Assembly (NCBI RefSeq): GCF_004010195.1
Contig: NC_057719.1
Span: 21,536,810-21,600,809 of the forward strand
Direction: 5' to 3'
Length of the DNA: 64,000 nucleotides
Source: Chiloscyllium plagiosum
Taxonomy: Eukaryota
Both the position numbers and the translations under genes were made by a program. Within the stretch, counting starts at the first letter, position 1; each line of letters opens with the position of its first letter. Positions 2,245 to 60,426 of this stretch are shown here, in pieces. Below the pieces are notes generated by a model. It had not been told where the DNA came from, did no database searches, and saw nothing but the letters and a program-made list of their open reading frames with translations.

Positions 2245-2437
2245 CAGATGCTGGAGATCAAAGTTGAAACTTTATTGCTGGAACAGCACAGCAGGTCAGG
2301 CAGCATCCAGGGAACAGGAGATTCGACGTTTCGGGCACAGGCCATTCCTGAAGAAGGGCCTGTGCCCGAAACGTCGAATCTCCTGTTCCCTGGATGCTGC
2401 CTGACCTGCTGTGCTGTTCCAGCAATAAAGTTTCAAC
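2245..2437. mobile_element. Penelope-like hairpin mini-element (inverted pLTR), family A
   Basis: Near-perfect palindrome; 14-bp TSD CCTGATCACATCTG at 2231-2244 and 2438-2451; homologous to the ends of GIY-YIG-bearing copies elsewhere in the window. Confidence 0.9.
2344..2379 (+). ncRNA. Minimal type I hammerhead ribozyme (PLE family A)
   Basis: ATTC-CTGAAGA-A-GGGC(CTGT)GCCC-GAAACGTC-GAAT: stem I ATTC/GAAT, conserved core, stem II, palindromic ACGT helix III, GUC cleavage triplet. Confidence 0.8.
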
Positions 2438-2749
2438 CCTGATCACATCTGGTCAGACCAGACAAGGATGACAGATTTCCGTCCTGAAATATGGATGTTT
2501 TTCAGCAATCCATGGTCACCATTACTGACATTATGGGTAGGATTGATAGGACTAGAGATGGTGAAATAAATAACAGGTGGGTAAGCCTAAATTGAATGAG
2601 GAACATAAAAATCATATTCTCACAGTTTAGTCCCTAAGTTTTCCTCCTTCCAGTAAGTGGGTTGACTATTGTGCCATCAGGCAATAATATGTTAATGTTT
2701 CAGTTTATCATTTGCATCTCAATAAAATAACAATTCTCTGGAATTAGCT

Positions 2750-4080
2750 ACATAGAACATAGAACAGTACAGCACAGTACAGGCTCTTCAGCCTCAATGT
2801 TGTGCAGGCCTTTTATCCTTCTCTAAGATCAAACTAACCTACATACCTTCATTTTACTATCATCCATGTGCCTATCCGTAAGTCACTTAAATGTCCCTAA
2901 TGCATCTGGCTCTACTACATCACTCTCTAGGTAAAGAATCTATCTCTGACATCTCCCCTAAACCTTCCTCCAATCACCCTAAAATTATGCCTCCTTGTGA
3001 TAGACCTTTCTGCCCAGGGAAAAAGTCTCTGACTATTCACTCTAATATGCCTCTCATCATCTTGTACACCTCTAGCAAGTTACCTCTCATCCTTCTTCGC
3101 TCCAATGAGAAAAGCCCTAACCTTCTCAACCTTTTATCATAAGACATGTCCTCTGGTCCAGGTAACATCCTGGGAAATCTCCTCTGCCCCCTCTCCAAAG
3201 CTTCCACATCCTTTCTATAATAAGGCGACCAGAACTGAACACAATATTTCAAGTGTGGTCTAATTAGGGCTGTACAGAGCTGCAGCATAATCTCACAGCT
3301 CTTAAACTCACTTTCCCTGCTAATGAAAGCCAACACACCATACGCCTTCTTAACAACCCTACCAACTTGGGTGGCAACTTTGACAGATCTGTGGACATGT
3401 ACTCCAAGATATCTGTGTTCTTCCACACTGCCAAGAATCCTGCTTTTAACCATGTCTTCTGTATTCAAGTTCAAACTTCCAAAGTGAATCACTTCACACT
3501 TTTCCAGGTTGAACCTCCATCTGCCACTTATCAGCCTAGTTCTGAATCCTGTTAATGTCCTGTTGCAACAACCCTCCACACGACCACTCTACATCAGCAA
3601 ATGTACTCATCCACCTTTCCACTACCTCATCCGAGTCATTTATAAAAATCACAAAGAGCAGAGGTCTCAGAACAGATCCCTGCAGAACTCCACTGGTCAC
3701 CAAGCTCCAGGCTGAAAACTTTCCATCTAGTAGGGCCCTCAGTCTTCTATAGGCCAGACAGCCAAATTTCCCTGTATCCCATGCCTCCTTACTTTCTGAA
3801 TCACCGTCCCATGGGGAACCTTCACACACACCTTGCTAAAATCCATGTGCACCACAACCACTGCTCTATCTTCATCAATGTGTTTTGTCACATCCTCAAA
3901 GAATTTAGTAAGGCCCCTCACAAAGCCATGCTGACTGGCTCTAATTAAACTATGGTTTTCCAATCATAAGTCCTGCCTCTCAGAATCCTCTCCAATCATT
4001 TGCCCACCACAGATGCAATTTTACAGACGGTCTGTAATTTCCCGGATTGTTCCTATTCCCTTTCTTGAACAAGGGAATAA
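2750..4080 (-). mobile_element. CR1-like LINE, 5'-truncated, frameshifted RT
   Basis: ORF fragments SQHGFVRG, MDFSKV, VTSGVLQGSVLRPLLFVIFIND, FNLEKCEVIHFG, LKYCVQFWSPY; CATAGAA tail repeats at 2750. Confidence 0.92.
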
Positions 4081-4419
4081 TATAATGATAATAATAATAT
4101 AATAACATAGCATAGTAATATTTTAATAATAACAACATAACATTTGCCATCCTCCAATTAATTTCTACTCAATGAAATATGATGCTTCAGAAACACAACA
4201 GCAAATGGCTGGTGAGTACCTGGCAATTTGGTTTTCTTCCTCCGCCTTCTCACTTTTTCCAAATACCAATAAAATTTTAAATGTTGCTTACAATCACTTG
4301 GCAAAGTGCAGTTGACACGACCAGGTGGAGCAAGGTATCCTGTGTGTTTGGGCCACCTCCAAGCCCAACTAGTATATGATAAACAGAGGGCACTGAGGGA
4401 AAGAAAATAGAGGTATTGG

Positions 4420-5230: not shown

Positions 5231-5564
5231 CATAGAATCCCTACAGTGTCGAAACAGGCCCTTCGGCCTAACAAGTCCACACCAACCTTCCAAAATGCAT
5301 TCCCAAACCCATTCCCCTCCCCTATATTTACCCCTGACGAATGCACCCAACCTACAAATCACTGAATACTATGTGCAATTTAGCATGGCCAATCCACCTA
5401 ACCTGCACATCTTTGTGGGAGCAAACTGGAGCAACCGGAGGAAACCCATGCAGACACAGGGAGAATGTGCAAACTCTGCACAGACAGTCACCTGAGACTA
5501 GAATCGAACTCGGGTCCCTGGCGCTGGAGGCAGCAATGCTAACCAATGATTCACCATGCCACCC
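5231..5564 (-). mobile_element. HE1-like V-SINE
   Basis: tRNA-like head, V-domain (GTTTGCACATTCTCCCTGTGTCTGCATGGGTTTCCTCCGG) and CR1-like tail on the minus strand. Confidence 0.88.
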
Positions 5565-5620
5565 TTGTGGACAACTCCTTGCTGATAATTGAAGCTAGAC
5601 TGGTAATCTGGTGGTTGACC

Positions 5621-8860: not shown

Positions 8861-8862
8861 CC

Positions 8863-11301: not shown

Positions 11302-12576
11302 GTTGAAACTTTATTGCTGGAACAGCACAGCAGGTCAGGCAGCATCCAGGGAACAGGAGATTTGACGTTTCGGGCACAGGCCCTTCTTCAGGAATGAGCA
11401 GAGAGTGTTCAGCAGGAGAAGATAAAAGGTAGGGAGGAGGGACTTGGAGGAGGGGCGTTGGAAATGTGATAGGTGGAAAGAGGTCAAGGTGAGGGTGATA
11501 GGTCAGAGTAGGATGGAGGCGGAGAGGTCAAGAAGAAGAGACTCCTCCCTCCCCTTCCTAGACCTTTCTGTTTCTATCTCAGGTGACCGAATCAACACGG
11601 ACATCTACTACAAACCNNNNNNNNNNNNNNNNNNNNNNNNNNNNNNNNNNNNNNNNNNNNNNNNNNNNNNNNNNNNNNNNNNNNNNNNNNNNNNNNNNNN
11701 NNNNNNNNNNNNNNNNNNNNNNNNNNNNNNNNNNNNNNNNNNNNNNNNNNNNNNNNNNNNNNNNNNNNNNNNNNNNNNNNNNNNNNNNNNNNNNNNNNNN
11801 NNNNNNNNNNNNNNNNNNNNNNNNNNNNNNNNNNNNNNNNNNNNNNNNNNNNNNNNNNNNNNNNNNNNNNNNNNNNNNNNNNNNNNNNNNNNNNNNNNNN
11901 NNNNNNNNNNNNNNNNNNNNNNNNNNNNNNNNNNNNNNNNNNNNNNNNNNNNNNNNNNNNNNNNNNNNNNNNNNNNNNNNNNNNNNNNNNNNNNNNNNNN
12001 NNNNNNNNNNNNNNNNNNNNNNNNNNNNNNNNNNNNNNNNNNNNNNNNNNNNNNNNNNNNNNNNNNNNNNNNNNNNNNNNNNNNNNNNNNNNNNNNNNNN
12101 NNNNNNNNNNNNNNNNNNNNNNNNNNNNNNNNNNNNNNNNNNNNNNNNNNNNNNNNNNNNNNNNNNNNNNNNNNNNNNNNNNNNNNNNNNNNNNNNNNNN
12201 NNNNNNNNNNNNNNNNNNNNNNNNNNNNNNNNNNNNNNNNNNNNNNNNNNNNNNNNNNNNNNNNNNNNNNNNNNNNNNNNNNNNNNNNNNNNNNNNNNNN
12301 NNNNNNNNNNNNNNNNNNNNNNNNNNNNNNNNNNNNNNNNNNNNNNNNNNNNNNNNNNNNNNNNNNNNNNNNNNNNNNNNNNNNNNNNNNNNNNNNNNNN
12401 NNNNNNNNNNNNNNNNNNNNNNNNNNNNNNNNNNNNNNNNNNNNNCCTTTTCCTGAAGAAGGGCCTGTGCCCGAAACGTCGAATCTCCTGTTCCCTGGAT
12501 GCTGCCTGACCTGCTGTGCTGTTCCAGCAATAAAGTTTCAACTTTGATCTCCAGCATCTGCAGACCTCACTTTTTC
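11302..12576. mobile_element. Inverted Penelope-like element (family A) with RT fragment and assembly gap
   Basis: 15-bp TSD CTCTCAAATATTAGC (11287-11301, 12577-12591); inverted ends; RT motif LPFLDLSVSISGDRINTDIYYKP ~11548-11616; hammerheads at 11360-11395 (-) and 12449-12484 (+). Confidence 0.9.
11617..12445. other. Assembly gap (829 N)
   Basis: N run. Confidence 1.
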
Positions 12577-13234
12577 CTCTCAAATATTAGCCCCTTGCCC
12601 AGTTAGAAATACAGTTTTCCCAGTTTACAGTTGACAGGCAAAGGACGTGATATTCTCAGCATTACACTGATGTACTATATAGTCTTCACACATGTTAAAT
12701 CAAATATCAACTCAGTATTATCAGAGAATCAACATGTTCGCAACTTGTGCAAAAATAATGAATTGGTATAGGTTGATGTATTGATCAAAACTAGGATTGA
12801 AAGGAAGACATGCTATGTGATATGTATACAAATGGCAACACCTAACTTAATAACACACAAGAGATACTATTCCCCATGTCCTGATATTGCTCATGACTAG
12901 AATGAAGTACAAAAAAATGTCATCACATTAAGGATGTAATAAGGAAAGCTTAATCACTCTCACGCTTTGTTTAGTCTTTCCCCTCTTTCTTTCTAGAATG
13001 CATTTTGAGCAGGATCACAAGACAACTTAAAATAGTTCATCGAAACACAAGTGCACCTTATTGCTTTTTGCTTTTTGCAACATTAGCTGCCAGTTCTCAT
13101 GAGAAACACTAGAGGGAACTCCTGCTACTGTACTATACCATGATAACACTGCCACTGCTGGTGAGCTCAAGATGCTCCTTAAAAGTTGTCACTGGACAGC
13201 CAGTCTCATATTTAAGCATTAATTTTCTCCAAAA

Positions 13235-13545
13235 TAGATTAGATTACTTACAGTGTGGAAACAGGCCCTTCGGCCCAACAAGTCCACACCGACCCGCCGA
13301 AGCGCAACCCACCCATACCCCTACATTTACCCCTTACCTAACACTACGGGCAATTTAGCGTGGCCAATTCACCTGACCTGCACATCTTTGGACTGTGGGA
13401 GGAAACCGGAGCACCTGGAGGAAACCCACGCAGACACGGGGAGAACGTGCAAACTCCACACAGTTAGTCGCCTGAGGCGGGAATTGAACCCGGATCTCTG
13501 GCGCTGCGAGGCAGCAGTGCTAACCACTGTGCCACCGTGCTACCC
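13235..13545 (-). mobile_element. HE1-like V-SINE (young, CpGs retained)
   Basis: Full head, V-domain and tail. Confidence 0.92.
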
Positions 13546-13957
13546 ACAAAAAATAAATGAGGTAAAAATGACTGACCTAAAGGATGATGGAGATTTGGAC
13601 AAGTCATGATTTTCCTACTTGCATTCCCAGTCACAGATATTGCTGTAAAGTGACGGAAGTGTGGTTTCAGTGGTAGATATCAGCCAGTCATTATAGTCAT
13701 ATATTAAAGTATGTTATATTATTTCTGCTACTGTTTGACCAATCCCGACATTAAGCAAGCCCGTTTAATACAAAGGATGAAAATGATTGAATGATAGCAC
13801 AGGCAGGAACGACATTTACAATTAAGTCCTCAGTAACTTACACTTACAGGTCTGTCTACAAATCTGATAAGTGAAGCTTTCTGCTTTATTCATAGCACAT
13901 TCTGTCAGACTTCTCCCTACTCAAACAGGGAAAGAAATAGAGTTATAGACAGAGAAA

Positions 13958-14415
13958 GAGAAAAAGACTTGCATTTTATACAACTTTCACAATCATTAGA
14001 CATTTAAGAGTGCTTCAAAGGCATTGAAGTACATTAGGAAGTGTAGTTTTTGTTGCAGGATGAATGATAGACATTTTGCGCTTAACGAATTTTCATGAAC
14101 TACTATCTGATAATAACCAGATAATCAACTTTTTGGGATGTTGTTTGGAAAATATTGGGCAAGGATAACTCACAAACTTTTCTTCAAAACAGTGCTCTAG
14201 ATGTTTTACATTCCTTTAACCTGGCACCATGGAATGGAGGTTTTGGAAGCATAATTGAGATGGCTTAACATCTCATCTGGAAGGCAGTCCATATGCCAGT
14301 GCAACACTGCCCTCAATACGACATCGGATTGTTAACTGAATTTTTTGTTCTTCAATGCAAGAGTGGCACTGAGCTTAGAGACTAGAAGATAAGAGTGTTA
14401 CCAAATGAGCCAACC
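13958..14415 (-). mobile_element. Deu-domain SINE (SacSINE1/AmnSINE1-related), old
   Basis: Minus strand CAGATGAGATGTTAAGCC...TTTTGAAGAA...GATTATCTGGTTATTATC...AATGCAAGTCTTT. Confidence 0.7.
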
Positions 14416-14981
14416 ATTGACACTGATAATGGTAGAGAGACATAAAAGAATCAAGACAATAGGGAACACATCAGAATTTATTTTCCAATTAGGTGAGAAA
14501 ACAAGAGACTATCATGGAACAAATAGATGCTTTTAAAGTTTGTTTGCCAGTTTTCTTCAAAGTGTTCATTTAATGTATTTATAAACCATGATGTTTTATT
14601 TTTAAGTTATCTTATTCAATACATTTCAAACGCAAATGTTTGTTTTAACTAAAATTTAATCAGCACTTTTCCAGTAAGATGGAGCAGTGTTGCACACAAT
14701 TCAATAGCCCAGAATAATGCCTGCTGTTGCTATGGAAAGGGGATCTTGCCATGGTATTTTGCAGACTCACAACATGTGCCATCACACTTGCTGTGAGTCA
14801 AATTTTGTTGTGTTAAATTAACTGCAATGGTACATTAAGTAAACACAGACATTAGATGATGTTAGAAAATTTTGCTGTTTTAAAGTGCACTTTAGTGAAA
14901 TGACCATATGTGTGCTAAATTGAATGATATTGTGAACAAAAATCAATTGGAAATTACAAGTCTGAAATCGTATTGTGATAT

Positions 14982-15277
14982 GGGCAGCACAGTGGTTAGC
15001 ACTGCTGCCTCACAGCGCCAGAGACCTGGGTTCAATTCCCGCCTCAGGCAACTGTCTGTGTGGAGTTTGCACATTCTCCCCGTATCTGCGTGGGTTTCCT
15101 CTGGGTGTTCTGGTTTCCTCCCACAGTCCAAAAATGTGCAGGTTAGGTGAATTGGCCATGCTAAATAGCCCGCAGTGTTAGGTGAAGGGGTAAATATAGG
15201 GACATGGGTGGGTTTCTCGTCGGTGTGGACTTGTTGGGCCGAAGGGCCTGTTTCCACACTGTAAGTAATCTAATCTA
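14982..15277 (+). mobile_element. HE1-like V-SINE
   Basis: GTGGTTAGCACTGCTGCCTCACAGCGCCAGAGACCTGGGTTCAATTCCC head, V-domain, tail. Confidence 0.92.
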
Positions 15278-17242: not shown

Positions 17243-17570
17243 GTGCAGCATGGTAGATCAGTGGTTAGCACTGTTACCTCACAGCAGCAGGAACCTCGAT
17301 TCAATTCCATTCAGTCTGTGTGGAGTTTGCACATTTGCCCTGTGTCTGCATGGGTTTCATCTGGTGCTCCAGTTTCCTTCCACAGTCCAAAGATGTGCAG
17401 GTTAGGTGGATTGGCCATGCTAAATTGTCTCATAATGTACAGGGATGTATATGTTAAGTTGTAGGCCAAGGTGGCAGGGTGGATCTGGGGCAGGCTGCTC
17501 TTTGGAAGGTTGGTGTGGACTCAGTGGACCATATGGCCTATTTCTGCACTGTGGGGATTTTATGATTCTT
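17243..17570 (+). mobile_element. HE1-like V-SINE (diverged)
   Basis: Head and V-domain recognisable. Confidence 0.85.
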
Positions 17571-20424: not shown

Positions 20425-20628
20425 AAAATGAAAGAACTGCGGATACTGGAAATCTGAAACAGAAACAGAAATTTCTGGAAAAGTTTAGCAGGTCTGGCAG
20501 CATCTTTGGAGAGACATCAGAGTTAACATTTTGAGTAAGGGTCAATGAACCTGAAATGTTAACTCTAATTTCTCTCCACAGATGCTGCCAGATCTGCTGA
20601 GATTTTCCAGCAACTTCTGTTTTTGTTT
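20425..20628. mobile_element. Old PLE-type hairpin mini-element
   Basis: Imperfect palindrome centred ~20535; shares AGCAGGTCTGGCAGCATC and the tail motif with other pLTRs. Confidence 0.65.
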
Positions 20629-20744: not shown

Positions 20745-22808
20745 AGTGATCAATAAAAGTAAGTGTACCAAATGCTTTCTTCATTACCCTGACTACCTGT
20801 GACTACACCTTCAACGTGAATCTGTACCCCAAGGTCTCTTTGTTCGGCAACATTCCCTACGATCTTGCCATTAACTGTATAAGCGCTGTCCTGATTTGCC
20901 TCCTCAAAATGCAAGACCTCACATTTATTGAAATTAAAGTCCATTTGCCACCCCATCTGATTTAGGTCTCATCATATTCTGAGATAAACTTCTTGACTGT
21001 CCACTACACCACCAATTGTGGTATCATCTGCAAACTTACCAACCATTCCTCCTTTCTTCACATCCAAATCATTTACATAAATGATAAAAAGCAGTGGACA
21101 TAGCACCAATCCTTGTGGCATTCTGCTGATCACCGGCCTCCAGTCCAAAAAGTAAACCTCCATCACGCCCTTTGTGTGCCAAGTGACATTTGTGGAAGTG
21201 CAGGTGAAACATTGATGGATGTGGCAGGCTCCTGTGGGGCCTTGGATGGAGGTGTGGATGCAGGTTTTGCAATTCCTATGGTGGCAGAGGAAGGTACCAG
21301 GACGGGAGGATGGATTGTTAGGGGCGTGGACCTGACCAGGTAGTCACAGAGGGAGCAGTCTTTGCGGAAAATGGATAGGGGTGGGGAGGAAAATATATCC
21401 CTGATGGTGGGGTCTGTTTGTCGCGGAAATGTTGGCGGACGATGCGTTTATGCAGAGGTTGGGGTAGATGGTGAGGACCAGGGGGATTCTGTCCTTCAAA
21501 GTTTCATCTGTACTTCCACAAATGTCACTAATTGCATCCCTTGCTACCGATGTGGTTTCCTTTACATTGGAGAGACTGGACGACTTCTCACAGAGCACTT
21601 CAGAGAACATCTCCATGAGACCTGCACCAATCAACCCCACCGCCTCGTGGTTGAACATTTCAACTCCCCCTCCCACTCTGCTGAGGACATGCAGGTCCTG
21701 GGCTTCCTCCATCGCCACTCTCTCACCATCCGATGCCTGGAGGAAGAACGCCTCACCTTCCGCCTCTGAACACTTCAAACGCAGGGCATCAATACTCCAA
21801 CAGTTTCCTCATTTCCCCTCCCCCCACCTCACCCCAGTTCTAAACTTCCAGCTCAGCACCATCCTTATGACCTATCCCACTTGTCAATCTTCCTTTCCAC
21901 CTATCGGCTCCACCTATCACCTTTACCCCTTCCTCCATCCACCTATTGCACTCCCAGCTACCTTCTCCCCAGCCCCATTTATCTCTCCATTTATCTCTCA
22001 ACCCCCGAGGCTTCCAACCTCATTCCTGATGAAGGGCTACTGCCTGAAACATTGATTTTCTTGCTCCTTGGATGCTGCCTGATCTGCTGTGCATTTCAAG
22101 CACCACTCTAATCTTGACTCTAATCTCCAGCATGCAATCTTCACTTTCACCCTGGATTCTATGTATTCTAACCTTGCTAACAAGTCTCCAATGCAGAACC
22201 TTGCCAAATGCCTTGAAGAAGTCCATATAGTTAGGATATCATGTTGCAGCTGTACCAGACATTGGTTAGGCCACGTTTGGAATATCACATTCAATTCTGG
22301 TCTCCATCCCACAGTTGTTGTTAAAGTTGAAAATGTTCAGAAAATATTTGCAAGGATGTTGCCAGTATGGAGGGTTTGATCTATAGGGAGAGGCTGGGGT
22401 TATTTTCCCTGTAGCGTCGGAGGCTGGGGAGTGACATTTAGAGGTTTATAAAATGATGAGGGGCATGAATAAGGTGAATAGCCAAACTCTCTTTCCCAAC
22501 ATAGGGGAGTCCAAAACTAGAGAGCATAGGTTTAAGGTGAGAGGGGAAAGATATAAAAGGGATTTTAGGGGCACTTTTTTCATTGTGTGTGTGTGTGTGA
22601 GAGATGACCTGCCAGAGGAAGTGGTGGCGGCTGGTACAATTACAACATTTAAAAGCATCTGGATGGGTATATGAATAAGGAGGAGGACTTAGAAGGATAT
22701 GGCCCAATTGCTGGCAAATAGGTGCAGATTAATTTAGAATATCTGATTGACATGGACAAGTTGGACCGAAGGGTCTGTTTCAGTGTTGAACATCTCTGTG
22801 ACTCTGTG
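20745..22808. mobile_element. CR1 LINE with inverted 5' part (minus 20745-21168 and 22150-22228; plus 22229-22808)
   Basis: Minus: MDFFKAFGKV, QGLVLCPLLFIIYVND, KFADDT, FNFNKCEVLHF; plus: IMLQLYQTLVRPRLEY through the 3' tail. Confidence 0.85.
21170..22149. mobile_element. Penelope-like element (Neptune-type GIY-YIG), partly inverted, inserted in the CR1
   Basis: CTSTNVTNCIPCYRCGFLYIGETGRLLTEHFREH...HFNSPSH (GIY-YIG with Cys/His motif); family A pLTR with decayed hammerhead ~22022-22057. Confidence 0.88.
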
Positions 22809-24065
22809 AAATCACTACATCTTAGCCTTAGATTCTATTGTGCTGCTCATATTTTGCTGAATTCTGCTATTGTAAAGGCTGATGCTAAGTAAATAATTTA
22901 ACATGTCCCTTATTGGCAATATCCTTGCAGTCTTGCCTGCATTTTATTTTATGGACTGACTTTCTACATTAACAATTTCTTTCCCCTAATTCATTTTTAA
23001 ACTCTATTTGTTAACTTAATATTTATTTCAATTGTTTTCATATTCAAATTTACACCTTTTTATTACTTGGTTGGTATCCCTTTAATGTTTTATAGCTCTC
23101 CCATTGAATTTCACATGTGTTTGCATTTTCCCCAGCTTGATATGTATCTATTGCCTCATGTATTGACTGTGGTTGCTTTACAGTGAGTGGAGCTTTTACC
23201 TTTGAGAGGTATGCATTGGATATAATATAGAAAATACTTCTTGGAGTATTGTCTATGGGTTCACCCATTGGGAGTTCAACCTCATTTACTTGTGTCTAGT
23301 TATTTCTCAAACTCACAGAGTTTGCCATACTAAATGTGAAGTTTTAGTTTGCAACTCTCCCTTCACTGTCTTGAACAATTCCATTGTACTTTATGAGTTC
23401 TACAAAAGATGTTTCTTCCTCCAAAAAGGATACACATCTGCACTCTTTTGGGGTGAATTATTTTGGGCACAGAAATTTAAGAAATTTAGCATACATGCCA
23501 TTGATTGGATACAATGCTGATTTGATGCCATTTTAAAGCATGGTCATCCTGCAAACATCATCTTCTAACCTTCCTTGACTGAAGAAATGATCAGTATCAG
23601 GAAGCCTACCAACAATTTGTGAAAGAATCATCTTTTAGATTATAAAATCTCTCACACTAATTAATGCGATTATCATGAGACTACTCAGACAGAGACCAAG
23701 GTAATGTTCTGAGGTGCTTAGTAAGAATTCCACCATGGCAGGTGGTAGAATTTGATTTCAATAAATATACAGGAATTCAGAGTCTAATGATGATCATGAA
23801 TTTCATGTCTATTGTCAGGAAAAGACCCATCTGGTTCACTAATGTCTTCTGGGGAAGGAGTCCACCATCTTTACGTGCTCTGGCCTACATGTGCTTCCAA
23901 CCCACTGAACTATCATGCCACCCACATAGCAAATCCTACAGTGGCAGCTCACTGTGCCAATACATTTTATCCACATTGGTAGACCAAACTGTAACTGTTG
24001 GGTGATAATACTCATTTACGGCATAGGGCGTAAGCAGCATGCAACCAGACATGTGTACATACAAT

Positions 24066-25054
24066 TGTAGAGTGTGTGGCGCTGGAAAAGCACAGCTGGT
24101 CAGGCAGCATTCAAAGAGCAGGAAAGTCGACGTTTATAGGCATAAGCCCTTCATCAGGAATCAGGCTTGTGGGCCAAGGGGCCNNNNNNNNNNNNNNNNN
24201 NNNNNNNNNNNNNNNNNNNNNNNNNNNNNNNNNNNNNNNNNNNNGGAAAGCAATAGGTAGAGGAGGGGGGGGGGGGGGTGAGAGCGGTAGGTTGGAGCAG
24301 ATAGGTGGGAAATAAGATGGACAGGTAGGACCGTTCAAAAGGGCGGTGCTGAGTTGGAAGGTTGGAACTGGGATAAGATGGGGGGAGGGGAAATGAGGAA
24401 CCTAGCAAAATCCACATTGAACCCGTATGGTTGGAGGGTTCCAACGTGGAAGATGAGGCATTCTTCCTCCAGGCGTTGAGTGGTTAAGATTTGGCTATGG
24501 AGGAGGCCCAGGACCTGCATGTCCTTGGCAGAGTGGGAGGGGGAGTGAAAGTGCTTAGCTACGGGGTGGTGGGGTTGGTTAAAGTGTTCAGCCACAGGAC
24601 TGAAACCCTAACTACCCATTGCCTAGAGGAAGGATGCCTCATCTCTCCACCTTGGGAACCTCTAACCACATGGGATCAATGTGGATTTCACCAGTTTCCC
24701 CATTTCCCCTCCCCCCACCTTATTCCCAACCCCAACCTTCCAATTTGGCACCACCCTCTCGAACGGTTCTACCTGTCCATCCTTCTTCCCAACTATCTGC
24801 TCCAACCTCCCCTCTGACTTATCACTTTCACCCCCACTTTATCTATCTATCACATTCCTAGCTACCTTCGCCCCAGCCCGACCCCTCTCCCATTTATGTC
24901 TCAGCCCCCTTGGCCCACAAGCCTCATTCCTGATGAAGGGCTCATGCCCAAAGCATCGACTCTCCTGCACCTCAGATGGTGCCTGACTGGCTGTGCTTTT
25001 CCACCACCACACTCTTCGACTCTGATCTCCAGTATCTGCCGTCCTCACCTTCTC
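24066..25054. mobile_element. Inverted Penelope-like element (family A)
   Basis: 16-bp TSD CATGTGTACATACAAT (24050-24065, 25055-25070); ~450-bp inverted arms; GIY-YIG C-terminus HFHSPSHSAKDMQVLG; 61-N gap 24184-24244. Confidence 0.9.
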
Positions 25055-26289: not shown

Positions 26290-26845
26290 ATTTTTCTCTC
26301 CACAAGGCAAGATTTTAGGGTGACTAGATAGAGATCTTTGAGATTATGTAGAGTTTGAAGGGGTAGACACAGGGAAGATACTTCCACTTGTGGGAAAGGT
26401 CAAAGCCAGATGCATAGATATAAAGTAATCATTAACAAATTCATTAGGAATTCAAGAGAAAGCTGTTTATCCAGAGAGTTAAAAATCACACAACACCAGG
26501 TTATAGTCCAACAGGTTTAATTGGAAGCACACTAGCTTTCGGACCGACGCTCCAATTAAACCTGTTGGACTATAACCTGGTGTTGTGTGATTTTTAACTT
26601 TGTACACCCCAGTCCAACACCGGCATCACCAAATCATATCCAGAGAGTGTTTACTTGTGATCTTCATTATCACACGGAATAGTTGAGTAAGGGACATTGA
26701 TACATTTAAGGGGAAGCTGAATACACATAAGAGAGAAAAGAAGAGCAGATTAGTTCTTGAAGACATCTCATCAGAGGCCTAAAAACCAGCATGCAGAGTT
26801 AGACGGAATGAACTGTCTGTGCACTGCACATTCTGTGTGACATTA
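26290..26845 (+). mobile_element. Old CR1 3' fragment interrupted by a PLE hairpin
   Basis: Decayed ORF2 C-terminus and 3' UTR. Confidence 0.65.
26480..26636. mobile_element. PLE hairpin mini-element, family B
   Basis: Palindrome plus one-sided tail; 12-bp TSD TATCCAGAGAGT (26468-26479, 26637-26648). Confidence 0.85.
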
Positions 26846-28113
26846 TAAAGTGAGAACATTTGGGTCTGTTGGAAGAAGGACCACACAAAAACAAAAATAA
26901 TTCTGAATACCTTGACCCAGCTGGATCCTGAATGCACTGGTTATCAACAATTCAGGAGACCAGAGATTTGTCATGGACTGACCCATGCGTTATACAATGC
27001 AGTCAGCAGCAAACACCTTCAAAAAGAAGTTGACCAAAATCTAAAAATAGTCCTGTCAGCAAAGTGTGCTGACTCCATCCCTCTTTTGCCCACAGGAGAA
27101 GGGCAAGCATAGAGTAATTGAGGCAAATTAGAGAATGACTCCATGCTTCCCTGAGGTGACAAGGCCTAGTATAGGTGCTCTGGGGTGGCCTCTGATTAGA
27201 ATTCCAGGCTGGCTTAGAGACAACCTCCATGCCTTCCTGGGTACTGCAGCCACTGGCCGTCCTGTGGAATGTCTCCCCTAAACCTTTCTGCTCCCCTGCT
27301 TCCCACCCCATTCTCCACACCCTAGTCCCCACAAGCACATATAGCAATGGCTTGTCTCCAAAGGTCATTATTTCACTTAAAGTTAATGCTAGAGACAGGG
27401 CATTTCCCATTTCAGCTTATGTTTGAAGCCTCTTCGAGGAGACTTGCACTGTGTTCCCACTTGTCCTCTGGGAATTAACTGACAGCCCCTTGGCAAATCA
27501 CAATACATAACAATTTCCACACAGCACAGGATCTGCTGGCCAGTGTGCTAGTATAAACCAACATTTCCAACTACTGTTGGCGTTCAGAATCCTACAGGAA
27601 AAATCAATGCCATTTACAAATAAGAGCAAATGCTGTGATTTTCCATCTATTCAATTTTATTATACCACCCTTAATGTCAAACATAAATGAAAAGTGCACG
27701 GTGAGTGCCAAAAATGGCAGCTTTTGCCTAGATTTTCAAATGTCAAAAGCAAACCAGGTCCCAATGGGTTAACTGAAAGAAGAGGAGGACAAAAATAGTT
27801 AAACAATTCCAAACTCTGAGTCCTCCTTTCATGTACTCGGAAAAAATGTGCCAGTGTACCTGCTACATTTTAACTTGACGTGCTCAAGAGTACGTAAAAG
27901 ACCCTGTCCAATAGAGCAGAAAGTCAGCCAAAATTATATGCTTATAAAACATTCAGCCTCTATTCTAAACCCAGGAGAATAAATTGAAGTTTTATTTTAC
28001 TGACATGAAAAGGCTAAACAGACAGTGGCAATAAAAACTGTATTATTGGCAGCATGTTAAAAACAGAAAGGCACTTTGAACATGTACTGTACAATGCATG
28101 AGCCCAAAAACGA

Positions 28114-28247
28114 TGTTAAAAATCACTCAACACCAGGTTACAGTCCGACAGGTTTATTTGGAAGTTCCAAATAAACCTGTTGGATTATAGCCTGGTGTGT
28201 TGTGAGTTTTAACTTTGGACACCCCAGTCCAACACCAGCATCTCCAT
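28114..28247. mobile_element. PLE hairpin mini-element, family B
   Basis: Palindrome with apex ~28164; decayed TSD CCCAAAAACGA/CCCATAAATGA. Confidence 0.8.
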
Positions 28248-29913: not shown

Positions 29914-30139
29914 GAGCAAATTCCTGCAGATGCTGGAATCTGTACAGAAAATAAAAATGCTGGAAATCACAGCGGGTCAGGCAGCATCTGTGGAGAGAGA
30001 GTAAGCTAACGTTTTGAGTCTGGATGACTCTTCGTCAGAGTTCTGATGAAGAATCATCTAGATTCAAAACGTTAGCTTGCTCTCTCTCCCCCAGATGCTG
30101 CCTGACCCGCTGTGATTTCCAGCATTGTATGTTTTCAGT
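29914..30139. mobile_element. PLE hairpin mini-element, family D, with two decayed back-to-back hammerheads
   Basis: Palindrome with apex ~30040; GTTCTGATGAAGAATCATCTAGATTCAAAACGTTAGC (30040-30076) and its antisense twin. Confidence 0.8.
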
Positions 30140-39823: not shown

Positions 39824-41025
39824 AGTTGGTGGTGGAGTGGACAATGAAGAAGATTACCTCAGAGTACAATGGGATCAGATGGACTGATGAGCTGAAGAAT
39901 GGTAATTGGAGTTTAATCTTTATAAATGTGAGGTGCTGCAGTTTGGAAGGACAAATCAGGGCAGGACTTATATACTAGGAGAACGTGAGGACTGCAGATG
40001 CTGGAGATCAGAGTCGAGAGTGTGATGCTGAAAAAGCACAGCAGGTCAGGCAGCATCCGAGGAGCAGGAGAATTAAATTTCAGGTATAAGCCCTTCATCA
40101 GGAATGAGGCTTGAGGGCTGGGGACACTGAGAGATAAATGGGAGGGGGATGGGGTTGGGGGAATGTAGCTGAGAATGCTGTATAGATGAAGGTGAGGAAA
40201 AGGTGATAGGTCAGAGAGGGGATTGGAGTGAATAGGTGGAAAAGTTGATGGACAGGTCAGGAGGGCAGTGCCGAGTTGGAGGCTTGGGACTGGGATAGTG
40301 TCGGGGAAGGGGAAATAAGGAAACTGTTGAAATCCACATTTATCCCTTGTGGTTACAGAGTCCCAAGGCAGAGTACCTTTTCCAGGCATCGGCTTGGCGG
40401 TGGAGGAGGCCCAGCACCTGCAAGTCATTGACAGAGTGGGAGGGGGAGTTGAAATGTTCAGCCATGGGGTGGTGGGGTTGGTGGGTGTGGGTGTTCCACA
40501 AATGTTCTCTGCAACGATCCACAAGAAGGCATCCTGTCTCCCTGCTGCAGAGGAGACCACATCGGGTGCAATGGATACAGTAGTTGGCATTGGTAGAGGT
40601 ACAGGTAAATTTCTGTTGGATGTGGAAGGATCCTTTGGGGCCTTGAACGGAGGTGAAGGGCATAGTGTGGGCACAGGTTTTATACACTTAAGGTCCTGAG
40701 GAGTGATGCCGAACAAAGGGACCTTGGAGTGCAGGTTCATAGTTTCTTGCAAATGGAGTCACAGATAGGTGGGATAGTGAAGAAGGCATTTAGTATGCTT
40801 GCCTTTCTTGGTCAGTGCATTGAGTATAGGAGTTGAGAGGTCAAGTTGCGACTGTGCAGGACATTGGTTAGACCACTTTTGGAATATACTTTCTTGCTAT
40901 AGGAAAGGGTTCAGAAAATATCTAAAAGGGTGTTGCCAGGGTTAGAGGTTTTGAGCTGTAGGGAAAGGCTGAACAGGGGCTATTTTTCCTGGAGCATCGG
41001 AGGCTGAGGGCTGACCTTATAAAAT
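39824..41025 (+). mobile_element. CR1 RT fragment split by a PLE; 3' tail resumes at 42422-42495
   Basis: KCEVLQFG..QRDLGVQVH..RRLRADL motifs. Confidence 0.8.
39978..40680 (-). mobile_element. Penelope-like element 3' part (Neptune-type GIY-YIG)
   Basis: FTCTSTNANYCIHCTRCGLLCSRETG...EHFNSPSH; family A pLTR; imperfect TSD TTATATACT/TTATACACT. Confidence 0.88.
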
Positions 41026-48010: not shown

Positions 48011-48234
48011 GTGTACAAAATTAAAAATCGTACAATACCAGGTTATAATCTGACTGGTTTATTTGGAAGCACTAGCTTTCAGAACGCTGCTCCTTCATCA
48101 GGTTGACAACCACCTGATGAAGGAGCAGCACTCTGAAAGCTAGTGCTTCCAAATAAACCTGTTGGACTATAACCTGATATTGTGTGATTTTTAACTTTGT
48201 ACACCCCAGTCCAACACCGGCATCTCCAAGTCAT
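48011..48234. mobile_element. PLE hairpin mini-element, family B
   Basis: Palindrome with apex ~48106 plus one-sided tail. Confidence 0.85.
48111..48145 (+). ncRNA. Minimal hammerhead ribozyme (family B), antisense twin at 48070-48104
   Basis: CAC-CTGATGA-AGGAGCAGCACTCT-GAAAGCTA-GTG: stem I CAC/GTG, palindromic AGCT helix III, CUA triplet; stem II partly decayed. Confidence 0.7.
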
Positions 48235-50348: not shown

Positions 50349-50372
50349 TGGTGAGTTAGGGAGTTGGGCTTG

Positions 50373-51338
50373 TAGAATAAAATCCCTACAGTGTAGAAAC
50401 CTTTGGTCTGTTATGGACTAGGTCAGAGAGCACAAACCATTTTGAGCAGGTAACCCAGACCATAACTTTGCAATTTGTTTCTGTAAGTGTATAGTGAGAA
50501 TTGCCCGGAGTAAGTTAGCTAGATTGACTACTAGGTTTTAAAACAGACAGAAATTTATTCACAAAATTACACAATGAAACACAAAGATCAAAATAAAGAC
50601 CCCCTATAGAACTCAGTCTATCCAAACTAGACTTAATTATGCTGTTCCAAATATACACAACAGTCCCGGTAAGCAAACCCCCTTAAAATAAAGTTTAAAA
50701 ATGGAACAGATGCGTGCAGAATGAAGTTAGAAGGGTAGAAAAAGAGAGAGAAGTTCCACACAGATGAACTCCTAACTAGTTCTGGACTGAACTGCTCAAC
50801 TAGAGAGCTGACCGCTCTCCTTTCATTATACAGGTCACTTCTAAAACATGACCACTTTGGCCTGAAGTCTCATCTGTTTACATATAAACGAAAAGGCCTC
50901 TTAATATCCTTTAATATCTATACCAAACCAGTCTAATCAGAACCAGGTGTGGTATACAATCCCTCTGAGAAAAGCCAAGGACACAGTATCCTTGAGCAGA
51001 GGAAAAGCTTTTAGAAAAAAAGGGCCAGCTTTGTGACAGGCCCAAAAAGTCCACAATGACCCTTTGAAGAGTAACCCACCAGACCCATTCCCCTCCCCTA
51101 TTATCTTATATTTATCCCTGACTGATGCACCCAACACTATGGGCAATTTAGCTTGGCTATTCACCTAACCTGCACATCTTTTGATTATTGGAGGAAACTG
51201 GAGTACCCAGAGGAAACCCACACAGACACAGGGAGAATGTACAAACTCTACACAGACAGTCACCCTAGGCTGGAATCAAACCAAGGTCCCTGGCGCTGTG
51301 AGGCAGCAGTGCTAACCACTGAGTCACCGTGCTGTCCC
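50373..51338 (-). mobile_element. HE1-like V-SINE split by a solo LTR
   Basis: Tail at 50373-50408; remainder at 51039-51338. Confidence 0.85.
50409..51038 (-). mobile_element. Solo LTR (630 bp)
   Basis: TGTTA...TGACA ends; 4-bp TSD GGTC/GGCC; minus-strand TATAA (~50825) and AATAAA (~50555). Confidence 0.8.
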
Positions 51339-52304: not shown

Positions 52305-52700
52305 GTAAACACAATGACTGCAGATGCTGGAAACCAGAGTTTAGATTAGAGTGGTGCTGGAAAAGCACAGCAGTTCAGGCAGCATCCGAGGAGCAGTAAA
52401 ATCGACGTTTCAGGCAAAAGCCCTTCATCAGGAATACAGGCACAGTGCCTGAAGGGTGGAGAGATAAATGAGAGGAGGGTGGGGGTGGGGAGAAAGTAGC
52501 ATAGAGTACAATAGGTGAGTGGGGGAGGGAATGAAGGTGATAGGTCAGGGGGAGGGGGGAGTGGATAGGTGGAAAAGATAGGCAAATAGGACAAGTCATG
52601 GGGACAGTGCTGAGCTGGAAGTTTAGAACTAGGGTGAGGTGGGGGAAGGGGAAATGAGGAAACTGTTGAAGTCCACATTGATGCCCTGGGGTTGAAGTGG
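52305..52700 (-). mobile_element. PLE 3' fragment (family A) with hammerhead at 52400-52435 (-)
   Basis: Minus strand ATTCCTGATGAAGGGCTTTTGCCTGAAACGTCGATT. Confidence 0.85.
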
Positions 52701-55254
52701 ACAACAAATATGAAATCATAGTGGCAGTTTAACAACAATTATACACTCTAGGTACAGCCAATGCTATTGTTATATTCAGAAGAGTGCACCAACAAAATTT
52801 GTGCCAGATACAATTTGCTGTCCAGCTTTTCTGAAGCACTGGGCACTGGGTATGAATGTGCAGGAAATCCGGTTCCAAAGGGCAAACAGAACTGTAGAAC
52901 AAAATACAAGAGACCAACAAAATGGTACAACACCACAAAATTACCAGCAAAGCAAGTGTTAAGAAAGCAAGTGCATCAATGAGGTTCAATGTCCAACCAA
53001 GCGAAGGCAAATTTCAGAAGGTGACCAAACTTTCCGTATGGTCACTTTCACAGACCATGTCATGTAAGGTGATAGAGCTTTCATACACTCTGAAAGATAG
53101 GGCAACATATATTAGACAGGGAGAAAGAGCTGGTGAAGAGCTTATGCTCAAAACATCAATTCTCCAGCTCCTCAGATGCTGCCTGATTGACTGTGCTTTT
53201 CCAGCACCACACTCTCAACACATATTAGATACTCAAATCAACTCAGGAGCTATTGATTATATATTATCACATTACATCATTGAAGGTATATTTCAGCAAA
53301 TGTCACTCCATGGTACAGTCTATGAGGGACTGTTTCACAATATACAATGGATTGCCAATTCTTTGCATGGGTGGAATCACAATGCAGTACCAAGCTTATC
53401 TTGGCTTTCCAATCTTTTCTACCTGGCAAAAAGCAATTATACAGCTGTGGCTGGACTATCAGTATGCACATTATGTCACAATTCATTGAGATTTAAACCA
53501 CAATCAACATAATATGGATGTGCTGGTATTGAACTGGGGTGGGCAAAGTTAAAAATCACAGAACACCAGGTTATAGTGCAACAGGTTTATTTGGAAATAC
53601 TATCTTTAGGAGCACTGCTCCTACATCAGGTAGCTGTGGAGCAGGATCATAAGACACAGAATTTATAGCAAAAGATCTGTGTCATGCCATAAGACACAGA
53701 ATTTATAGCAAAAGATCAGTGTCAAATCACAATGTGATTGAAAGAAGTTCTGGGATTTACATATTAATGATCCGAAACCTGCAACCCATTCTAAAAGATG
53801 AGAGACTTAACAGCAATCTAGGTCTGTTCAATATACTGTATCAGTTGCATGCGTGATGCTGTAATCTTGTCTTTTGATCCTGCTGCACAGCTACCTGATG
53901 AAAGAGCAGTGTTTCGAAAGCTAGTACTTCCATATAAACCTGTTGGAGTATAATGGTGTTATGTGATTTTTAATAATCAATATAGCAGAACAGGCCACAT
54001 GTGGTATAATTAAGTCCATCAACAATCGACAAGAATATGACTTCAAAGTGAGATATAAGTAAGGTACCAGCTGATTATGTTTGATCAAATTAACAAAATA
54101 AAATAATACCAAGATATCATTCTTAATGTGCACATCAATGCTCTTCACTGTGAAATTGAGACATTTTCAAGGTTGATCTGTAAAACTTAACTGAGTCATT
54201 GAGAACAATTGGCAACTGTTGAAAATAAGCAATGGAACAGTTGTAAAAGAGTAGTCTCCAGTTCTGTCCTGACAGTTTCAGCAAATTACCTAAAAATGTA
54301 ATTTTAGCCAGACAGAGACAAACTTGGGAGATCACTGTTTGGTCATTTTCAAGAGCAAACAATTCTGAACATGGAAAAGAAATACTAAGTTAATCCATGG
54401 GTACTGAACACAGGAGACACTAGCATATGGATTTGTGTTTTGGCCAGGGATGAATCAGGGTTTGTACTGTCTCCTGAATTAATGTGCACCATGTGAAATA
54501 TTTGCCTCAGTAGTGGAGGCACAATGGAGCCTCTCTATCCACATGATTTTCAATCCACTCTTTTGAGGAAATTAGCAACAGACCTTTTCACAGTATCTGG
54601 GGAAGATTGCATCTCTATGATGGATTACTTCTTTAAATTTTGCATTCTTTGATTATTTAACAGTACAACAAACATAGGCATCCAGTGTAAATCACACCAA
54701 GACATTTACGATTATGGTAATTCCTTTTTTGAAGGTTTGAAAACTAGCTCACACCAATGCATGACACACCAATCATGCATGAAGTGTGTGGAAGGAAAAT
54801 CCAGTGATGATTGTGCAGTGATAACAACTAGCACCAAGAGAACATTATCAAACAAATGCAACAGAGAACAATGGGTATTTCTCCACACGTGTACATGTTT
54901 ACTAGATCAGGGCAATTTGTCAAACTTACAAGCAATAAGTTAAAGCTTGAAATATTAATCCGATAAACTCTGTTTTAGCTATTTGTACGACTATTGAGTT
55001 GACAGCATGTACAATCATATGACCACATCAATATTTGTTTGGGATAAGTTTTTACCTATATCAAAGAGGGATGTTGTATTTGGTCTCACAGTCAGAATTT
55101 ATGTATTTCAGAATACATTTAATAGTTATGTTCATGTATCATCAGTGCATTGTATTGTGTAACCTGAAGGTCCAAAGATCTCATACTCCATCCTAACTTA
55201 GAACCTTTGAAGCATCATACTTTAAGGAGCATACTTCTCTGTTGTAATGCAACA
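52700..55254 (+). mobile_element. Decayed Gypsy element (gag knuckle, protease, integrase, PPT and probable LTR)
   Basis: CPAF..GHW..MCR (~52818-52865); INSGAIDYIL..LFYL..AVAGLSVC (53237-53468); LAYGFVFWPGMNQ (~54420); EPLYPHDF..KLATDLF..DYFFKF (~54527-54640); AAAGAGGGA then TGTTG at 55072 and CAACA at 55254. Confidence 0.75.
53512..53974. mobile_element. Inverted PLE, family B
   Basis: Inverted arms; TSD AATCAA(C/T)ATA (53502-53511, 53975-53984); hammerhead remnant CTGATGAAAGAGCAGTGTTTCGAAAGCTAGT ~53895-53925; internal 30-bp duplication. Confidence 0.8.
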
Positions 55255-57929: not shown

Positions 57930-58830
57930 GAAGTATTTGATGAGGGAACAAGCAGCACAGATAAAGGGGAGGCAGCGGACATAATATATTTGGATTTTCA
58001 GAATGCATTTAATGAAGTACTACATCTGAGGCTACTTAATAAGAGCCCATGGTGTAGTATATTAGCATGGATAGAGGATTGGTTAACAAATAGAAGATAG
58101 AGAGTTGAGACATTTTCAGGATGGTAACCTGTAACTACTGATTTGCCACAAGGATCATTGCTTGGGTCTCAAATATCGACCATAAATATTTGTGAACTTG
58201 GTGAGGGACACGAATGAATTCTAGCCAAGTTTGCAGATGACACAAAAATAGGTGGGAAGTCAGTTGGTGAGGATGACACAAAAAGTGGGCAAAGGAAAGT
58301 AGGCAGATTAAACAAAACAGTAGGCAAAAACAGTATTTTTAAGGAAAGGTGAGCTGGCATTGAAAGCACTCCAGAGAAGGTTCATTCGGCTGATAACAGT
58401 TATGGAGGGAATGTCTTATCCAGACAAATAAGGTAGGTTGGGCCTGTAGAAGAATGAGAGGTGATGTTAAGATTCATGAGGGACTTGACAGGGTAGATAC
58501 AAAAAGGTTTCCCCTGGTGGGAGATCTGAAGGCAAGAGGCCATAATCGCAGAATATAGGGTCGCACATTTAAAACAAAGATAAGGTGGAATTTCCTCTCT
58601 CATAGGGTAGTGAATCTATGGAATTTTTTACTGCACAGGGCTATTGAGATTGGCTCGGTAATGCAGAGAGAGATTGATTTTTAATCAATAAGACAATCTA
58701 AGATTATGAGGACATGCTAGGAAAGCAGAATTGACGATTATCAGCTCAGTCATGATCTCATTGAAATGGGGGAGAAGACTTGATGGGCAGACTGACCTCC
58801 TTCTGTTCCTGTGTCATTTGGTTTTATAGT
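57930..58830 (+). mobile_element. Old CR1 RT and 3' fragment
   Basis: IYLDFQNAF, AKFADDTKIGG, FLSHRVVNLWN motifs. Confidence 0.82.
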
Positions 58831-59467
58831 CTATCTTGGATAGTCCTGCATATAAGAATGGGTGAGATTCTTATTAGTTCATCTCATTCTATTATATTAC
58901 ACAAAATCCTACTCTCAAGGGAATCACTGGACTGGAAATAATAGTAAAACAATTAATTCATTTTTGGCAACATGTTTCAAGTAGAAACCTTATATTATCA
59001 GTGTGTATTATCTCTTGCCTTTTATCCTTCCATATCTATTCCTTTTATCGAATAGACAAAAAAATGAGTTTGAGAATCATCATTGCCAAGTAAGGAGGGG
59101 GTTTTGCCAGCCTTCTTTTTCAAGTCCTCTTCATCAGTTGCAATTAAATCTTCCTATTTATTTTAAATATACTCTTATCGCAGTTCATTAAAAATGTGGT
59201 TTGTTAGGAACTGAATGAACAAGTTACCAATGTTTCTCCTGAGCTCTTTCAGCGATATGGGAGCTGCTGTCTTTGCCAGCATTTGTACCCATCTCTCATT
59301 GGTCAGGAGACAAAAAACGTTGCGATGGATTTTGAATGACACGTAGGCCAGGCAAGGTGAAGATGGCAGATTTCCTTTCATTAGTGAGCAAGCTGTGACA
59401 ACAGTTGCATGGTAACCATTAGATTTGCCTTGAATTCCAGATTTTTAGCAAATACAAATTTACCATT

Positions 59468-60426
59468 GCTGTGGTTCTGTTCGCCGAGCTGGAAGTTTTT
59501 GTTGCAAACGTTTCGTCCCCTGGCTAGGCGACATCATCAGTGCTTGGGAGCCTCCTGCGAAGCGCTTCTTTGATGTTTCCTCCGATGTTTATAGTGGTCT
59601 GTCCCTGCCGCTTCCGGTTGTCAGTTTCAGCTGTCCGCTGTAGTGGTTGGTATATTGGGTCCAGGTCGATGTGTTTGTTGATGGAGTTTGTGGATGAATA
59701 CCATGCCTCTAGGAATTCCCTGGTTGTTCTCTGTCTAGCTTGCCCTATGATAGTAGTGTTGTCCCAGTCGAATTCATGTTGCTTGTTGTCTGTGTGTGTG
59801 GCTACTAAGGATAGCTGGTCGTGTCATTTCGTGGCTAGTTGATGTTCATGTATGCGGATTGCAGTACACCAGAACTGCAAAAAGAAGAAGAGGAACACCT
59901 ATACAAGGTATTCGCCAAAAACGGATACCCGCGCAACTTCATCAACAGATGCCTAAGAGAAAGACCATGGAAAGAGGACATACCACAACCAAAAGGACTA
60001 GCCACACTACCATACATCAGGAGCATCTCGGAACTGACAGCCCTGGCTAGGCGACATCATCAGTGGGACAACACTACTACCATTCGACTGGGACAACACT
60101 ACTATCATAGGGCAAGCCAGACAGAGAACAGCCAGGGAATTCCTAGTGGCATGGCATTCATCCACAAACTCCATCAACAAACACATCGACCTGGACCCAA
60201 TATACCAACCACTACAGCGGACAGCTGAAACTGACAACCGGAAGCGGCAGGGACAGACCATTATAAACACCGGAGAAAACATCAAAGAAGCGCTTCGCAG
60301 GAGGCTCCCAAGCACTGATGATGTCGCCTAGCCAGGGGACGAAACGTTTGCAACAAAAACTTCCAGCTCGGCGAACAGAACCACAGCAACGAGCACCCGA
60401 GCTACAAATCTTCGCACAAACTTTGA
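59468..60426. mobile_element. Young inverted Poseidon-type Penelope-like element (family C)
   Basis: 14-bp TSD ACAAATTTACCATT (59454-59467, 60427-60440); RT C-terminus KVFAKNGYPRNFINR..LPYI; GIY-YIG C-terminus IHEHQLA..FDWDN..REFLEAW..NSINKHIDLDPIY. Confidence 0.92.
60312..60351 (+). ncRNA. Minimal hammerhead ribozyme (family C), antisense twin at 59504-59543
   Basis: GCA-CTGATGA-T-GTCGCCT(AGCC)AGGGGAC-GAAACGTT-TGC: stem I GCA/TGC, palindromic ACGT helix III, GUU triplet. Confidence 0.78.

Follow-up and report, generated by a model that had tools for sequence, protein, structure and literature searches.

Hammerhead cores in the window

The window, i.e. the whole stretch of DNA analysed, comprises 64,000 nt of the Chiloscyllium plagiosum genome (GCF_004010195.1, contig NC_057719.1, positions 21,536,810-21,600,809, forward strand). 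It carries hammerhead cores and remnants of four families of Penelope-like elements (PLE), A to D, as follows.

Family A
2348..2375 (+), intact core of the youngest subfamily; stems I and II of 4 bp each, ACGU as helix III, GUC as triplet
2255..2354 (-), inverted arm of the 2348 insertion, lacking CUGANGA
11364..11391 (-), core missing the first pair of stem I; it is the inverted arm of the insertion at 12453
11540..11617 (+), reverse transcriptase (RT) piece, 100% to the L176 protein, entering an N gap
12453..12480 (+), intact core
21458..21853 (+), older copy with a disrupted GIY-YIG endonuclease region, 55% to the L176 protein
22026..22053 (+), core with helix III decayed to ACAU
24064..25026 (unstranded), older back-to-back pair with both cores damaged; endonuclease remnant at 24341-24592 (-)
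40006..40681 (-), older copy: endonuclease remnant, then a damaged core at 40101
52404..52431 (-), core of an older subfamily; stem I of 2 bp, then U-U
53130-53223 (+), damaged inverted partner of the 52431 core

Family B
48114..48142 (+), core with a 3-bp stem I, AGCU as helix III and CUA as triplet
48073..48101 (-), core in the inverted arm of the 48114 insertion
53895..53923 (+), core lacking G10.1; its inverted partner, at 53534-53638 (-), is damaged
26471..26613 (unstranded), inverted pair with truncated cores, forming a perfect 49-bp hairpin
28110..28229 (unstranded), inverted tail pair without cores

Family C
60315..60348 (+), core with U as the extra base and a long stem II; ACGU as helix III, GUU as triplet
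59507..59540 (-), core in the inverted arm of the 60315 insertion; arms of 308 nt, 98% complementary
59572..60235 (unstranded), rearranged RT-thumb and GIY-YIG fragments between the arms
60042-60067 (-), partial third core between the two arms

Family D
30043..30073 (+), core with G12>A, predicted inactive
30008..30038 (-), core in the inverted arm, G12>A
20457..20627 (unstranded), old D-type inverted pair, cores damaged
61677..61777 (-), old D-type copy, core damaged

A sequence-only reading of this DNA had cited nine of these cores, and all nine are present, three of them on the minus strand. The C3 of CUGANGA lies at 2348(+), 11391(-), 12453(+) and 52431(-) in family A, at 48114(+) and 53895(+) in B, at 60315(+) and 59540(-) in C, and at 30043(+) and 30038(-) in D. 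As had been described, one base separates CUGANGA from stem II in every cited core, and a self-complementary 4-nt ACGU or AGCU precedes the cleavage base. A structural descriptor detected 8 sites in the window; 60 Markov shuffles averaged 0.017 sites, and none had more than 1. The window cores exceed chance.

The nine listed cores amount to seven insertions: 11391 and 12453 are the back-to-back arms of one, and 59540 and 60315 those of another. Several are mirror arms or decayed (the damage to the D arms, 53895 and 11391 is given above). The density of about ten cores per 64 kb proposed earlier falls between two counts: it is above that of intact cores (7 tight-pattern matches) and below that of remnants (22 spanning the core and 8 partial). 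Cores 22026(+) and 48073-48101(-) were absent from the earlier list. The four families stand, but A and D resemble each other in part: a 3′ tail stretch of 32 nt is common to both, 91% identical (30043 versus 2348). Only two palindromes occur among the four (ACGU in A, C and D; AGCU in B), where differing palindromic helices III had been emphasized, and cleavage triplets are not family-specific, as C has GUU and GUC subfamilies, and B CUA and CUU. An Rfam scan of the window returned zero hammerhead families and six miRNA matches, all below cut-offs, which are due to the hairpins of the inverted arms.

Association with Penelope-like elements

The attribution to PLE was borne out: in each of the four families, Penelope-like endonuclease remnants precede cores. 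In family A, the 684-aa ORF of L176 contains an RT followed by a GIY-YIG domain (RVT_1, E 2.7e-6; GIY-YIG, E 3.3e-4, both just below the curated Pfam cut-offs), and a core is found 159 nt 3′ of this ORF. In family C, RT and endonuclease were found on different copies: the ORF of L204 extends up to the core (GIY-YIG, E 0.0023), and the RT region of L207 is 26% identical to L176 (E 1.8e-19). RT was seen only for these two families. Cores of families B and D are preceded by endonuclease remnants (L154, L042; L220, L226, L239), the only coding remnants found within 1.5-1.6 kb upstream when RT was sought, and it is from these remnants that both families are known relative to the EN+ PLE clades. Translations contain the CX2-5CxxC linker in A and lack it in C; by the linker criterion given in PMC8557442, A would be of Neptune/Nematis type and C of Penelope/Poseidon type, labels that derive from motifs alone. 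Pfam gave nothing useful for 17 ORFs of the window or for 3 more of its fragments, which are too broken, a PDB sequence search with the family A endonuclease gave nothing below E 0.2, and a GIY-YIG family search of the genome yielded one weak match.

All 30 long A copies inspected were 5′-truncated, and none had within 1.5 kb upstream the same-subfamily core that would mark a direct tandem pLTR-ORF-pLTR, the arrangement required for dimers in cis. A back-to-back partner within 2 kb was present for 23 of the 30 window remnants and 120 of the 256 sample remnants. This means that about half of the copies would be locked into hairpins.

Genome-wide load and ribozyme architecture

Four tight patterns gave 199,558 matches in the genome, and reversed controls 0. 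The genome-wide density is about 3.6 per 64 kb, against 7 in the window. The dense load announced from the window is therefore confirmed, with ∼200,000 near-intact copies being a very high number. Published counts are ∼4,000 for coelacanth and ∼9,000 for Xenopus (PMC4209133), albeit with different descriptors, so that the numbers are not strictly comparable. In family D, 2,322 genomic matches retain G12, unlike the window arms. The genome includes young, probably recently active copies of family A. At 2348, 40 of the 40 scored candidates were identical over 97 nt.

Subfamily cores present CUGANGA, GAAA and UH in type I order. Position 7 of CUGANGA is A, U, G or C across subfamilies, the remaining core bases being fixed. 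An extra unpaired base stands between 9 and 10.1 in all 14 subfamily cores (A in families A, B and D, U in C) and in 26 of 27 descriptor matches of a genome sample. The pair G10.1-C11.1 is G-C or, in B, a decay-type G-U in 12 of 14 subfamily majorities; one C subfamily has G-U, and all pair. Of 100 cells in the alignment of family C, 92 were paired, with 8 double changes, compared to 33-44% paired in slid controls. None of 500 shuffles reached its covariation score, which is inflated by the kinship of the sequences. Double changes were also found in stem I of B (C-G/U-A) and in stems I and II of D. Stems I and II thus pair and covary across subfamilies. In the abundant older A subfamilies, stem I has 2 bp followed by a U-U mismatch, and the double hammerhead was the lowest-energy dimer predicted by ViennaRNA in none of the 14 subfamily cores.

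Helix III and the decay of inserted copies

In a sample of 771 kb taken from the genome at even spacing, 24 of 27 descriptor matches had a 4-nt palindrome, against 0 of 8 in three controls. The helix III majority is ACGU or AGCU in 12 of 14 subfamilies; the other two, which are old, have ACAU as a result of CpG decay. Young A copies were the place where non-palindromic helices could have contradicted the dimer idea, and all 25 that were picked by their endonuclease have ACGUC. A non-palindromic AAGU subfamily was suspected in C from 4 cases among the first 100 matches listed. It was rejected, as 208 AAGT matches compare with 183 of the strand-symmetric ACTT, scattered across all C subfamilies. 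The ACGU/AGCU swap does retain the palindrome, but as a sign of selected dimer pairing it is weaker than proposed: it happened once, and chance alone would keep the palindrome in 3 of the 9 double changes possible. The case for pairing selection rests on the absence of any non-palindromic subfamily majority, CpG decay being allowed for.

Inserted copies decay neutrally. In family A, the helix III CpG is intact in 45 of 87 copies, and neighbouring CpGs in 55 of 89 and 52 of 89; loss is equal, and these copies show no sign of selection. Selection would act on the few source elements and not on inserted copies, which number several hundred thousand.

Cleavage by dimers and U6 junctions

We propose, with a probability of about 0.85, that the window contains minimal type I hammerhead cores from the terminal repeats of four PLE families, in truncated or mirror-paired insertions, and that the RNA of source elements is likely cut only as same-family dimers. 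The loop-less 4-nt helix III would be unable to close on itself, so that two copies pair. One copy would bring CUGANGA, stem II and GAAA to the active site, and the other UH and the 3′ strand of stem I. With the active site split in this way, helix III and stem I would both form between copies, making the families mutually incompatible on paper. When families are paired with each other, one or both of the stem I helices retain no more than 1 bp in every combination; with stem I and helix III predicted to be incompatible, heterodimers should fail. The cut, placed after N17, would release a short leader and produce a 5′-OH end.

U6 sequences abut family A at 6 loci among the best 48 matches scored, and in 4 of the 6 the junction is with the base immediately following GUC. 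In the background, 8 of 256 copies fall within 2 nt (p ∼1e-5). These junctions at the predicted cut site are indirect evidence of in vivo cutting and likely its DNA record; template switching at a cut end, instead of ligation, may also have produced them. Short copies start 0-12 nt upstream of the core in 101 of 259 cases for A, 50 of 120 for B and 75 of 124 for D, rather than at the cut site, which suggests that most of the copied RNA was uncut. An extra G was found at 5′ ends in A (30 of 66) and B (13 of 23; p ∼0.02 each versus one third). In a poly(A) single-cell RNA run, of a library type that provides no cleavage test, reads from both strands covered the motif without their ends piling up; a second run yielded no reads over it.

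The upstream starts are also what would be expected of a motif kept as a protein binding site or a promoter/leader structure, which seldom or never cuts. The low in vitro activity published for such ribozymes (PMC4209133), the weak stem I of the abundant A subfamilies and the unfavourable dimer folding fit as well. Such a role would leave unexplained why N7 is the only free position in an otherwise fixed catalytic core, and why four U6 junctions, each in a subfamily whose stem I is weak, coincide with the scissile bond; we consider it improbable, though the most serious of the alternatives.

The palindrome may owe its persistence to descent from one ancestor, without selection for pairing between copies. 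ACGU, common to three of the four families, is the usual GAAAC/GUH hammerhead sequence without its loop, and a single swap is seen in this genome. Stems and loops of the same subfamilies changed repeatedly, however, while helix III did not, family C has no AAGU subfamily, and C-G, G-C, U-A and A-U versions recur across animals (PMC4209133, Fig. S3), making simple inheritance very unlikely. We give hardly any weight to the copies being tandem non-LTR retrozymes, or ribozymes domesticated by the host and maintained where they inserted. Very high copy number and reads covering the motif in one RNA run would be compatible with it, but no tandem array of the window contains a core, copies are dispersed or inverted, and the neutral loss of the helix III CpG largely refutes it. 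Cleavage as same-family dimers of source-element RNA remains the preferred reading.

Relation to known hammerheads

Minimal hammerheads have been described in the pLTRs of metazoan PLEs (Cervera and De la Pena 2014, PMC4209133). They have the same type I order, extra base 9/10.1, G10.1-C11.1 pair and palindromic loop-less 15.2-16.2, along with opposite-strand pairs (published spacing 100-700 bp), C-G/G-C/U-A/A-U variants, and GUC, GUU, CUA and CUU triplets. There too, one genome holds several consensus families, with 6 known from coelacanth and 8 from Xenopus. Architecture, family diversity, swaps and varied triplets are therefore already published, and the architecture adds nothing new. Differences lie in the host lineage, absent from the lineages listed in the available text of that paper, and in the in vivo evidence and cross-family analysis, absent from the same text. 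PLE-associated small hammerheads with a short palindromic stem III, cleaving as dimers, were also reported by Lunse, Weinberg and Breaker (2017, via the review PMC6765202), and ours resemble them in their PLE association and short palindromic stem III. As in EN+ PLEs of the Neptune and Penelope/Poseidon clades (PMC8557442), RT precedes GIY-YIG, the hammerhead is in the pLTR, and inverted 5′-truncated copies occur. Non-LTR retrozymes, for which one cartilaginous fish was sampled (bioRxiv 10.64898/2026.07.22.740005; PMC7761336), likewise have type I hammerheads related to PLE pLTRs. Unlike these tandem arrays without ORF, the present copies are dispersed truncations of coding PLEs.

Literature searches whose coverage left out most subscription papers found nothing relevant on hammerheads in PLEs of sharks, and no U6 chimeras with Penelope hammerheads. 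New here are the predicted cross-family incompatibility and the four U6 copies joined exactly at the predicted family A cut site. The C. plagiosum genome is a very large natural set, offering matched subfamilies for covariation, a clear prediction for homo- versus heterodimers and a genomic trace of cleavage. More tentatively, and with somewhat less than even odds, ∼200,000 near-intact and ∼860,000 decayed cores would form at least four families with mutually exclusive pairing codes, the U6 chimeras reflecting germ-line cutting even with a 2-bp stem I. The chimeras resemble those of U6 and LINE-1 made by RtcB ligation (PMC6789731), where the U6 3′ end is joined to retroelement RNA before insertion; unlike there, the partner end is here a predicted ribozyme product.

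Hammerhead cores in the window

All nine hammerhead cores claimed by the sequence-only reading are present in the window, three of them on the minus strand. A type I hammerhead descriptor with a 4-nt helix III gave 8 matches there versus 0.017 in shuffles. The nine cores amount to seven insertions, because 11391/12453 and 59540/60315 (C3 of CUGANGA) are mirror arms, i.e. back-to-back copies within one insertion. Both family D arms are damaged, as are the cores at 53895 and 11391. Profile search found 22 core-spanning and 8 partial remnants.

Both N gaps of the window (11617-12445 and 24184-24244) lie inside inverted family A insertions. At 39104-41940, a family A copy lies within a large inverted repeat (arms 39423-39963 and 41030-41605), on either side of which sits a deleted D-like core: 39183(-) and 41861(+). 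Back-to-back arms form long near-perfect hairpins at 26476-26600, 29956-30126, 48011-48204 and 2256-2444, which score as miRNA precursors and might give rise to small RNAs targeting these Penelope-like elements (PLEs). Another dispersed repeat, unrelated to hammerheads, occupies 13234-15278, 5290-5420, 17388-17455, 35563-35613, 51079-51181 and 62240-62291, with one copy pair inverted (60-nt perfect arm).

Stems, helix III and dimers

The extra base and paired stems were found in 14 of 14 subfamily majorities, so that the consensus stems do pair, and they covary: compensating changes occur in stem I of families B, C and D, and in stem II of C and D. In an alignment of 10 distinct family C copies, pairing held in 92 of 100 cells, with 8 double changes; this covariation score was reached by 0 of 500 shuffles, a control inflated by the relatedness of the copies. 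Families A, C and D have ACGU as helix III, and B has AGCU; ACAU, seen in two old subfamily majorities, arose through CpG decay. Among the first 100 matches listed per family, counted by eye, AGCU made up 95 in B, and ACGU 74 in A and 69 in C, nearly all remaining A and C variants being CpG transitions. An AAGU subfamily, once suspected, was ruled out by a strand-symmetry test.

Non-palindromic helices III were not common in young copies (25 of 25 palindromic), yet 8 of 20 low-divergence A copies of an unbiased set had lost the palindrome. Since helix III CpGs decay at about the rate of neighbouring CpGs, selection is confined to source elements. The ACGU/AGCU swap had been taken as a sign of selected dimer pairing; it does keep the palindrome, but a single swap is weak evidence alone.

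A loop-less helix III would have to pair with a second copy, and we infer that it pairs between copies; in the double-hammerhead fold, a model described in PMC4209133, stem I would likewise form between copies. Pair counts over all subfamily combinations left 2-5 bp in both stems I for same-family pairs, whereas in every cross-family pair one or both stems I retained no more than 1 bp, and family B helix III mismatches that of A, C and D. On these counts, heterodimers between families are predicted to fail, whether by selection or as a by-product of divergence. Three results count against the dimer model: nearest-neighbour folding favoured the double hammerhead in no subfamily, a mirror partner, expected to sequester the core, exists in about half of copies, and a search of 30 long family A copies turned up no direct tandem.

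Every architectural point of families A-D is already there in the minimal hammerheads of Cervera and De la Pena 2014 (PMC4209133): extra base, palindrome, opposite-strand pairs, helix III in G-C and C-G versions, varied triplets, and 6-8 hammerhead families per vertebrate genome. The architecture is thus known, and a review (PMC6765202) credits dimer cleavage to that work and to Lunse 2017. Worth keeping are the scale of the load, the predicted failure of heterodimers and the U6 junctions. A search mostly outside subscription journals turned up no publication describing a shark ribozyme load of this size, or junctions between U6 and PLEs.

Coding parts

At L176, a family A locus outside the window, an ORF with reverse transcriptase (RT), cysteine linker and GIY-YIG ends 159 nt upstream of the core; both Pfam scores, RT and GIY-YIG, are slightly below cut-offs. 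Family A ORFs outside the window reach 684 aa. In family C, fragments of RT and GIY-YIG reach as far as the core and lack the cysteine linker (L188, L204, L207). By the linker criterion of Craig et al. 2021 (PMC8557442), A would be Neptune/Nematis-type and C Penelope/Poseidon-type. Family B has the order endonuclease, (CA)n stretch, core (L154, L042), with an endonuclease 37.5% identical to that of A. Three of 30 family D loci have common upstream sequence: L220 and L226 carry endonuclease remnants (30-36% identity to that of A), and L239 has a short piece. Part of the 3' tail is common to A and D. Families B and D appear to resemble the type of family A. The (CA)n-rich stretch of B often coincides with an assembly gap (L154, L042, L040).

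Genomic load

Exact patterns, with the two middle helix III bases free and stem I not required, matched 144,397 (A), 26,729 (B), 26,110 (C) and 2,322 (D) times in the 3.56-Gb genome, 199,558 in total or 3.6 per 64 kb; reversed-pattern controls gave 0 matches. The repeat-rich 64-kb window, with 7 tight-pattern matches, shows no clear excess over the genome rate (p 0.07). A sample of 80 evenly spaced 10-kb stretches (771 kb) held 49 exact-pattern matches, 24 fully paired palindromic cores (∼110,000 genome-wide, 95% range 71,000-165,000) and 187 core-spanning remnants (∼860,000 genome-wide).

U6 junctions

From 48 scored Rfam matches, 46 U6 3' ends were obtained, and U6 was joined to family A sequence at six loci. 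In four, the U-run passes straight into the base that follows GUC:

L309, contig C10: U6-A junction at the cut site
L326, contig C7: U6-A junction at the cut site
L336, contig C31: U6-A junction at the cut site
L343, contig C10: U6-A junction at the cut site

These represent four different family A subfamilies, all with a 2-bp stem I. At L321 and L325, U6 adjoins an interior part of the endonuclease sequence in family A-type elements, which means that such junctions also occur away from the cut site. Four of the 6 joins are at the bond, against 8 of 256 other A copies starting within 2 nt of it (p ∼1e-5). Judged from sequence, these family A junctions appear to be an in vivo trace of cutting; both ligation and template switching at a cut end would fit.

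At L338, U6 runs into a tail weakly resembling that of family C (10 bits), possibly a junction close to the family C cut site. The same SINE-like motif lies within 60 nt downstream of 16 of the 46 U6 3' ends (L303-L348), which makes U6 chimeras a common feature of this genome. Across all loci, most short copies start between 0 and 12 nt upstream of CUGANGA, and they often carry a foreign G (in the window, 2342, 12449, 30037 and 48106).
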